64,000 nucleotides of DNA, taken from NCBI GenBank assembly GCA_951406725.2, contig OX597816.1, forward strand, positions 74,710,001-74,774,000. The letters run 5' to 3'. Both the position numbers and the translations under genes were made by a program. Source of the DNA: Octopus vulgaris. Its lineage: Eukaryota. This document shows positions 26,291-28,512 of this stretch, one piece after another. Under the pieces are notes generated by a model that searched no databases, was not told the origin of the DNA, and saw only the letters and a list, made by a program, of their open reading frames with translations. Each line of letters starts with the position of its first letter. Position 1 is the first letter of the stretch.

Positions 26291-27897
26291 ATTTATATAT
26301 GAGGATAATATCGATATTTAAGTGTCGAAATTATCAAGTGGCCAGCATGAAAGAAATACCTTACAAAGGTAAAAAAATTTTTAACAATTAAAAATGAGGG
26401 TGTCTAAAAGACACTAACATGCCGAAATAGCAGTCGAAACACTGACTATAGTACCACGTTAAATGTTCATATCGCACCATGAGGTAAAGCGGAGGGACAA
26501 AACATACAAGCAAAAATTATTGAATAATTCAAGATCCAAGGATTTCTGGTTCTGCTTTAGATAAGCTTTACCGTCATCAATTGAATATATCAAGGGTACA
26601 TAAATACAGATATATATATGCACAGCAAACGATATACTTACATATACGAGCGTCGTACATACATACATATGCACGTATGGACACAGCCAGTTTGAATCGC
26701 CCGCCAAATCACCGCATAAGTACGATATGGTTAAAATAAGCACCGCAGTGAATATAATAACGAATTATATAAATTTATATATGAGGATAATATCGATATT
26801 TAAGTGTCGAAATTATCAAGTGGCCAGCATGAAAGAAATACCTTACAAAGGTAAAAAAATTTTTAACAATTAAAAATGAGGGTGTCTTTTAGACAAAAAT
26901 ATAAATGAAATTTAGACACCATCATTTTTAATTGTTAAAATTTTTTTTACCTTTGTTAGGTATTTCTTTCATGCTGGCCACTTGATAATTTCGACACTTA
27001 AATATCGATATTATCCTCATATATAAATTTATATAATTCGTTATTATATTCACTGCGGTGCTTATTTTAACCATATCGTACTTATGCGGTGATTTGGCGG
27101 GCGATTCAAACTGGCTGTGTCCATACGTGCATATGTATGTATGTACGACGCTCGTATATGTAAGTATATCGTTTGCTGTGCATATATATATCTGTATTTA
27201 TGTACCCTTGATATATTTAATTGATGACGGTAAAAGCTTATCTAAAGCAGAACCAGAAATCCTTGGATCTTGAATTATTCAATAATTTTTGCTTGTATGT
27301 TTTGTCCCTCCGCTTTACCTCATGGTGCGATATGAACATTTAACGTGGTACTATAGTCAGTGTTTCGACTGCTATTTCGGCATGTTGGTGTCTTTTAGAC
27401 ACCCTCATTTTTAATTGTTAAAAATTTTTTACCTTTGTAGGTATTTCTTTCATGCTGGCCACTTGATAATTTCGACACTTAAATATCGATATTATCCTCA
27501 TATATAAATTTATATAATTCGTTATTATATTCACTGCGGTGCTTATTTTAACCATATCGTACTTATGCGGTGATTTGGCGGGCGATACAAACTGGCTGTG
27601 TCCATACGTGCATATGTATGTATGTACGACGCTCGTATATGTAAGTATATCGTTTGCTGTGCATATATATATCTGTATTTATGTACCCTTGATATATTCA
27701 ATTGATGACGGTAAAGCTTATCTAAAGCAGAACCAGAAATCCTTGGATCTTGAATTATTCAATAATTTTTGCTTGTATGTTTTGTCCCTCCGCTTTACCT
27801 CATGGTGCGATATGAACATTTAACGTGGTACTATAGTCAGTGTTTCGACTGCTATTTCGGCATGTTGGTGTCTTTTAGACACCCTCATTTTTAATTA
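26291..27897. mobile_element. Retrozyme / Penelope pLTR-like element: ~482-bp monomer, ~1.25 copies followed by ~2.05 inverted copies
   Basis: gaggataatatcg at 26301 and 26783 (period 482); inversion at ~26887-26911; tttagacacc at 26911, 27394, 27874; copies nearly identical; one hammerhead per monomer; (TA)n on both flanks. Confidence 0.85.
27696..27755 (+). ncRNA. Type I hammerhead ribozyme variant (copies at 27215-27275 + and 26527-26586 -)
   Basis: Stem I attcaa/ttgaat; core TTGATGA; stem II cGGT-aaaGCTTatctaAAGCaga-ACCa; GAAA; stem III ATCC-tt-GGAT; cleavage triplet ATC (after 27749). Deviates by C3U and a C/A mismatch at the base of stem II. Confidence 0.7.
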
Positions 27898-28024
27898 TAT
27901 ATATATATATATATATATATATATATATATATATATATATATATATATATATATATATATATATATATATATATATATATATATATATATATATATATAT
28001 ATATATATATATATATATATATAT

Positions 28025-28512
28025 GTTATCGCCATATTAATATGGCATTCTTATAGATATAAGAATAATCGCTGCCGCTGGTCAGCTCCATGAGGCCACC
28101 GCCTTAAGATAGCTATTGATACACGATCTGTATCCATTATAACCTTCGAACAAGGGAGGTCAGCCGCTTCACACTGCCAGTCCGACAGCTACAGACGCGT
28201 TTCGGGGTATTGCCCCTTGTCAATGTAGCGCAGTCAGACCCCGCAGGTGTCGCCACTGACGTCTCTGTTCGAAGGCTTATATTTACCTAGTTTCAGTGGA
28301 ATACATCCACTTGTTTTCAATAATAGAAATATTAAAATTACTAAGTCTATGAAAGAGATTACGACAGCGTTTACTGGAAATTAATCGTTATCGCCATATT
28401 AATATGGCATTCTTATATCTATAAGAATGCCATATTAATATGGCGATAACGATTAATTTCCAGTAAACGCTGCCGTAATCTCTTTTATAGAGACTTAGTA
28501 ATTTTAATATTT
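28025..28512. mobile_element. Second retrozyme / pLTR-like element: 362-bp monomer, partial direct repeat and ~90-bp inverted arm
   Basis: gttatcgccatattaatatggcattcttata at 28025 and 28387; near-perfect palindrome 28327-28512; (TA)n flanks; contains a hammerhead. Confidence 0.85.
28188..28229 (-). ncRNA. Minimal type I hammerhead ribozyme with U3-A8 core
   Basis: Minus strand GCTACA-TTGACAA-GGGG-caata-CCCC-GAAA-CGC-GTC-TGTAGC: perfect 6-bp stem I, 4-bp stem II, palindromic ACGCGT stem III typical of PLE minimal hammerheads, GUC cleavage triplet. Confidence 0.85.

Follow-up and report, generated by a model that had tools for sequence, protein, structure and literature searches.

Near-strict pairing of a short and a long terminus in inverted insertions of octopus hammerhead retrozymes and Penelope-like elements suggests two-sided priming

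Penelope-like elements (PLEs) are the retroelements closest to telomerase. In the twin priming of L1, both target strands prime on one RNA, which yields a 5′ inversion joined by microhomology; the second primer acts at a variable internal site, and the two arms are non-overlapping parts of the RNA. The insertion unit described for EN+ PLEs carries an inverted, 5′-truncated pLTR copy in head-to-head orientation and an optional tail that is often present at one end only (PMC3846280; PMC8557442), and PMC8557442 counts the formation of such inverted ends and tails among the tasks still open. Biochemical information comes from Poseidon. With AT-rich DNA as the target, the purified Poseidon protein PAc, from Anolis, nicks each of the two strands and extends both (Frangieh et al. 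2024, PMC11167929). It starts reverse transcription at two internal RNA sites that delimit an AC-rich tail, and a dimeric state has been predicted for it (PMC11167929). In these in vitro reactions, start-site use was not seen to differ between the top and the bottom strand, and the main text of the study reports no paired use of the two sites (PMC11167929). Another group of elements, the metazoan non-LTR retrozymes, is presumed to be mobilised by Penelope-like elements (Cervera and de la Pena 2020, PMC7229834; Li et al. bioRxiv 10.64898/2026.07.22.740005).

Within the window, that is, the whole 64-kb stretch of Octopus vulgaris DNA analysed here, a single (TA)n-rich region has received two distinct insertions. 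Element A (26284–27896) and element B (28025–28517) are independent insertions separated by a (TA)n tract (27897–28024), and they are further bordered by (TA)n-rich tracts at 26187–26283 and 28518–28974. Positions on the monomers (m) are numbered from 27397 on the plus strand for A and from 28410 on the minus strand for B. Element A consists of a minus-strand left arm of approximately 600 nt (26284–26887; ∼1.25 units), which has a long (tailed) terminus, m120, at 26284, and a plus-strand right arm (26911–27896) made of ∼2.05 tandem units of 480 to 482 nt, which has a short (tailless) terminus, m20, at 27896. The arms are joined head-to-head at 26881–26910, where a strand switch within a GGTGTC hairpin, with a shared word of 7 nt, is followed by a 17-nt insert (26894–26910). 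The single other match to this insert in the window is in the flank (25806–25822, plus strand), which is its likely template. Element B has a 362-nt unit. Its left arm, on the minus strand, measures 404 nt (28025–28428; ∼1.1 units) and stops at 28025 in a short terminus that is slightly truncated (m24); its right arm, on the plus strand, measures 109 nt (28409–28517) and has a long (tailed) terminus, m91, at 28517. The head-to-head junction of B (28409–28428) lies at the hairpin ATTCTTATA, with a microhomology of 9 nt, and an identical junction point is found at another locus (L040). Elsewhere in the window, a LINE-type element occupies 31921–34843 of the plus strand, with an endonuclease frame at 31921–32592 and a 657-aa RVT_1 frame at 32873–34843. 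Unrelated Penelope-type elements often share or adjoin one (TA)n tract, as seen at L221/L153, L021, L172, and 27897–28024 of the window.

The first-pass annotation of the window had proposed that two unrelated Penelope-type ribozyme elements each turn round exactly at a small internal hairpin and end just past that same hairpin, with the ribozyme-sense strands directed away from the turn. As a description of the two window copies this holds. The strand switch of A lies in the hairpin GGTGTC-TTTTA-GACA (26881–26895), exactly so in the sequence, and its right end at 27896 lies 13 nt beyond the hairpin; B switches strands at 28409–28428, and its left end at 28025 lies 22 nt beyond the same hairpin. 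In both elements, the hammerhead motifs read outward from the turn, and BLAST finds no similarity between A and B. The Penelope-type assignment is borne out by a PLE insertion signature, consisting of a tail, an inverted 5′-truncated copy, and an AT-rich target, that is identical to that of the autonomous families N1 and N2 described later.

In element A, type I hammerhead-like motifs were located in the left arm (26527–26586, minus strand; from the sequence and a motif table), in the first unit of the right arm (27215–27275, plus strand; from the sequence), and again in the right arm at 27696–27755 (plus strand; predicted cut after 27749). The last of these has a stem I of ATTCAA/TTGAAT, a TTGATGA...GAAA core, and the palindromic stem III TCCTTGGA; one form of the A motif is common to 67 loci. 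The type I hammerhead-like motif of element B (28188–28229, minus strand) reads GCTACA-TTGACAA-GGGGCAATACCCC-GAAA-CGCG-TC-TGTAGC, and relatives of B show two-sided changes in hammerhead stems I, II, and III. Stems I to III are present in both families, the cores are variants (TTGATGA and TTGACAA), and an Rfam scan of the window gave no match at the gathering score. The units (480–482 nt in A, 362 nt in B) are arranged in tandem, are low in GC, contain no open reading frame of note, and form arms of up to ∼3.5 units. By these sequence features, A and B are non-coding hammerhead retrozyme families with units of ∼480 and 362 nt that reside in (TA)n, and they join the non-LTR retrozymes as new members (PMC7229834; bioRxiv 10.64898/2026.07.22.740005). 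The 5′ ends of arm segments show no accumulation where the ribozyme would cut (4/194 A and 4/146 B segments), and many segments read through it (123/194 and 75/146, respectively), which fits a circular or uncut RNA template.

A DNA link to a particular autonomous element was not found when A and B were compared with 100 PLE-bearing loci, a comparison in which just two autonomous families of many, N1 and N2, were examined in depth. Relatives of A and B that lie beside GIY-YIG matches (L269 and L319) were considered as pLTRs; they look like neighbours instead. A 75%-diverged relative of family A at L319 (308–576) is likewise head-to-head; its junction is near-symmetric, and of its two ends one is long and the other short. 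A third hammerhead motif, with the canonical core CTGATGA...GAAA and unrelated to A and B, was seen at L142/L143.

To describe the families as such, 130 A and 90 B loci were collected from the octopus's own genome (2.8-Gb assembly) by a match to the full unit or to an exact terminus motif. These loci are samples: the terminus motifs gave 163, 102, 64, and 988 matches. Once identical element sequences had been collapsed, the sets came to 112 insertions for A (74 inverted) and 89 for B (55 inverted); three copies cut by locus edges were dropped. Each family has two fixed 3′ termini, at m20 and m120 in A and at about m33 and m91 in B, and the intervening tail is 100 nt long in A and 58 nt in B (∼46 nt in N1 and ∼38 nt in N2). 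The inverted copies almost always carry one terminus of each kind. Among the 74 inverted A copies, 66 are short plus long, none is short plus short or long plus long, and eight have another end; the corresponding numbers for the 55 inverted B copies are 49, none, one (L209), and five. A non-standard end thus occurs in 13 inverted copies of A and B. Across A, B, N1, and N2, the short-plus-long pairing holds in 139 of 140 classifiable inverted copies, and it holds in 59/59 copies from the sets that were chosen independently of an end.

Both window elements obey the pairing. The long end of A (26284) lies 100 nt beyond the hairpin-side end position and that of B (28517) lies ∼60 nt beyond it, whereas the short end of B, at m24, is ∼9 nt shorter than the commonest end of the family (m33; 25/110 ends). 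The earlier proposal that the elements end just past the hairpin therefore stands for one end per element and for families A and B, and fails for the other ends and for N1 and N2. The pairing itself was missed in the first-pass annotation because one end of each element was looked at.

Seemingly single-armed insertions make up 36/112 of the A and 33/89 of the B sets, and some of these have a second arm below the length that BLAST detects. Copies with the short end alone are common, and their lengths equal those of the short-end arms of inverted copies. Within the tail of B there is a hot spot, at m63 to m64, where the long-end arm repeatedly stops after 28 to 29 nt (L162, L186, L190, L192, L197, L198, L211, and L219). 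A few two-armed composites recur, unchanged or almost unchanged, at different places (L179/L188; L200/L201/L204; L096); whole composites thus become duplicated, and not all copies are independent.

A GIY-YIG fragment adjoining one locus led to N1, a very young Penelope-type family. The 4271-bp unit of N1 has a pLTR with a hammerhead-like motif, a 775-aa frame for reverse transcriptase and GIY-YIG, and a separate 430-aa frame that begins just past the long end. Its copies are 99.5 to 100% alike (e.g., L284, 5296–7620 of the plus strand, and L301), there are hundreds of near-identical ones, many with intact 775-aa frames, and one N1 29-mer has 763 exact matches. N2 (L302, 2245–4587 of the plus strand, and L303–L320) encodes 781 aa, has a short and a long end of its own, and has an upstream frame of up to 479 aa. 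In Pfam searches with the 775-aa and 781-aa frames, GIY-YIG scored over the cut-off and RVT_1 just under it. The nuclease of N1 is preceded by CNDSRCGTC, which conforms to the CX2-5CxxC motif. Judged by domains and motif rather than by a tree, N1 would be a Neptune-type EN+ PLE, either Neptune or Nematis. The N1 set comprised 20 listed opposite-strand pairs, picked by position (the ends of three had already been seen), and one tandem-reference locus. All 21 pairs have one short and one long end, as do all three N2 pairs among the 19 loci retrieved; the N1 tail is AC-rich. Two further frames (L146, 676–1551, minus strand; L216, 2133–2714, plus strand), for which Pfam gave no match, resemble fragments of another Penelope-like reverse transcriptase.

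The relation between the two arms was analysed for simple inverted copies, complex copies with three or more segments being left out of the containment counts. Neither arm is contained in its partner in 33/61 A, 28/46 B, and 13/21 N1 copies (74/128 in total), which means that plain snap-back of a cDNA cannot make these copies. One arm lies within the other, as fold-back requires, in the remaining 28/61, 18/46, and 8/21 copies (54/128). The tail exceeds the long-end arm in length in 19/107 copies of A and B, such that the two arms have no sequence in common. Near-symmetric junctions are in excess in A (12/61 versus 6.1 by shuffling; p = 0.013) and at the expected level in B (5/46 versus 5.6); some A copies may thus be true fold-backs. 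Arm lengths correlate in A (0.44, n = 46) and less so in B (0.33, n = 31, p = 0.07), with a value of −0.18 in N1 (n = 21). Equal arm lengths were considered as a sign of simultaneous synthesis, and no clear excess of them was found.

Microhomology was scored after dropping junctions that have an arm of <94% identity. At insert-free junctions, its mean length was 1.6 nt in A (null, 0.75 nt; n = 27 of 54 scored) and 3.5 nt in B (null, 0.69 nt; n = 17 of 30 scored), and 11 of 13 N1 junctions show at least 1 nt. Some of the apparent inserts at A and B junctions are mere mismatches to the reference unit from the window. Of the junction inserts of 8 to 60 nt, 7/15 copy sequence located within 150 nt. 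Taken by their sequence, the junctions look like products of end-joining. Target-site duplications (TSDs) of 12 to 14 bp surround the entire two-armed unit in B copies with non-TA targets (L038, L043, L046, and L059), which indicates that both arms arrive in one event; the targets of A are pure TA in 56/66 cases, where a TSD is unreadable.

Sequence variants were used to compare the sources of the two arms. The arm overlaps of the 21 N1 pairs add up to 43,602 nt, in which 34 minor alleles are present in both arms, compared with 27 mismatches. For N1 lineage variants, 10 sites are concordant and one is discordant, whereas shuffled pairs gave 3.8 and 13.4, respectively. The same arm concordance is seen in A (236/56 versus a null of 58/423) and B (153/57 versus 31/300), also inside the young main subfamily. 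Among alleles private to one pair, 3/20 surfaced at other loci in an enlarged sample. When rare alleles found in both arms were checked genome-wide, all three others that were tested recur elsewhere, with 7, 8, and 4 matches in all (8 for one such allele versus 763 for the common allele), and at L301 one rare allele is present in all three passes. These recurrences indicate variants of the template rather than errors of one copying round. Where tandem passes differ from each other, it is the pass in the corresponding register that agrees with the opposite arm, by 9 versus 1 at the minor alleles of B and by 2/2 at L295 in N1; A was uninformative in this respect. The shared alleles point to the conclusion that both arms derive from one source copy, while one RNA molecule and two transcripts of one source locus cannot be told apart from genomic sequence.

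The reading that we favour, and hold to be somewhat better than an even bet, is that a single source RNA is reverse-transcribed from primers on both nicked target strands, starting at the two tail boundaries, and that the cDNA ends are then joined. A Penelope reverse transcriptase/endonuclease dimer would nick both strands of AT-rich DNA with a stagger of 12 to 13 nt, one active site starting at the distal and the other at the proximal boundary of the tail. Along a tandem or circular RNA that has not been cut, both cDNAs would be extended 5′-ward, with no relation between their stopping points. Their antisense 3′ ends, which lie on opposite strands, would anneal by a few bases or be bridged by a templated insert, and each cDNA would then serve as the template for the second strand of its partner. 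An internal hairpin would be the best place for two cDNAs to pair, which would account for the two junctions of the window. Here, we infer the paired use of the start sites, the single RNA, and the joining step from genomic evidence that is indirect throughout. A broader version, in which Penelope integration, unlike that of LINEs, is obligately two-ended, with a dimer clamping the tail of one RNA so that the same RNA is copied twice, seems to us as open to doubt as to belief.

Much of this evidence would be met by a variant of two-sided priming in which each active site of an asymmetric dimer uses its own RNA, both transcribed from a single active source locus. This variant predicts the one-of-each pairing, the non-containment, and the common source alleles equally well; we nevertheless consider it unlikely, as the genome holds hundreds of near-identical N1 copies, yet just 1/11 informative lineage sites is discordant, and the register of tandem passes in one arm is matched by the other in B and at L295. 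A comparably low probability is assigned to a scenario with one cDNA that starts from the long end and folds back, after which the endonuclease trims at the short site and the centre of the palindrome is deleted asymmetrically by end-joining. Alleles common to the arms, central microhomology, templated inserts, and the near-symmetric excess of A are all explained in this way, and there are precedents in that PMC8557442 ascribes the tail to endonuclease-mediated resolution and PMC3846280 proposes self-priming. However, large central deletions would be required in at least 74/128 copies, even in N1, whose arms are 0 to 0.25% apart, and the entire common part would have to be lost in 19/107. Furthermore, both tail boundaries act as start sites of reverse transcription in vitro (PMC11167929), the common short-end-only copies are of equal length, and the tested alleles shared by the arms are lineage alleles, not one-off errors.

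The mechanism put forward in the first-pass annotation, namely that reverse transcription begins at the hairpin and the cDNA snaps back there, is close to the self-priming at junction palindromes that the Discussion of PMC3846280 already proposes. Both window junctions do lie at hairpins, the B junction point recurs at L040, and the short ends of A and B have a hairpin before them (z = −2.9 and −2.3, respectively, against base shuffles). Plotted on the monomer, however, as the annotation itself had suggested, the inversion points scatter over the whole unit, and the turn is at the hairpin in 2/61 simple A and 2/46 simple B inverted copies, the window copies counted. At 4/107, the hairpin is at most a weak hot spot of inversion. 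It also fails as a general marker of the start site, since the 60 nt before the short ends of N1 and N2 are unstructured. Because the junctions scatter, and with most arms not contained in their partner, hairpin snap-back is largely refuted as a general mechanism and we give it very little credence; a start of reverse transcription near the hairpin remains likely, the fixed site being the short end. The two hairpin junctions of the window are real but are exceptions, hairpins merely giving the longest microhomology for a junction. The least credible possibility is an artefact, with the palindromes arising from errors of assembly or from fold-back chimeras among the reads. Neither window junction is bridged by public short-read contigs (four runs each), which says little since such contigs break at repeats and the insertion is possibly absent from those individuals; words of family A are present in 20 public runs of 11 studies, and one contig of run X3 has another antisense-to-sense joint of this family. 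As genuine insertion products would, the arms differ in their fixed ends and by point mutations, TSDs enclose the whole unit, and the A junction carries a flank-derived insert.

If two-sided priming on one source RNA is correct, a single step would yield the TSD, the tail on one side, and the inverted pseudo-LTR alike, and a two-ended Penelope reaction would insert even the circular RNAs of non-coding retrozymes. The near-strict pairing spans four unrelated families, non-coding as well as autonomous, and may be read as the signature of a two-start, two-ended insertion. The inverted architecture and the two start sites are already in print, while the strict pairing and the same-source arms appear to be new: a literature search of open main texts yielded no statement of near-obligate short-plus-long pairing, non-containment, or same-source arms, although an earlier statement is possible.

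Like the EN+ PLE insertion units described previously, the families studied here have a head-to-head copy, microsatellite targets, and TSDs (PMC3846280; PMC8557442). The tail, described as optional and 30 to 40 bp long in these sources, is 38 to 100 nt here and nearly obligate in its pairing (139/140). Inversion is attributed in the same sources to self-priming or endonuclease resolution, whereas the arms observed here are mostly non-contained and come from the same source; the pairing rule and the same-source arms argue against the self-priming reading. As in the published metazoan non-LTR retrozymes, the units of A and B are non-coding, tandem, a few hundred bases long, and low in GC, with a single type I hammerhead-like motif per unit, TSDs of >4 bp, and presumed mobilisation by Penelope-like elements (PMC7229834; bioRxiv 10.64898/2026.07.22.740005). 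The A unit, at 480 to 482 nt, is slightly larger than the 150 to 450 bp quoted for that group. Compared with the retrozymes as published, most A and B copies are two-armed and head-to-head, with two fixed ends; the word “inverted” has no match in PMC7229834 and one, in a reference title, in bioRxiv 10.64898/2026.07.22.740005.

The Poseidon PAc system resembles N1 in its AC-rich tail and all families in having two starts that bound the tail and an AT-rich target, whereas the scenario given for it leads, through second-strand synthesis, to one new copy alone, and its main text does not tie the two sites to the ends of inverted insertions (PMC11167929). With the pairing rule and the same-source arms, what was a curiosity of description becomes a prediction open to testing in this existing in vitro system, and N1, a very young autonomous family in which one 29-mer has at least 763 copies, lends itself readily to such a test. 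Compared with L1 twin priming, the two starts found here are both fixed and lie 38 to 100 nt apart, and the arms copy the same upstream sequence again.
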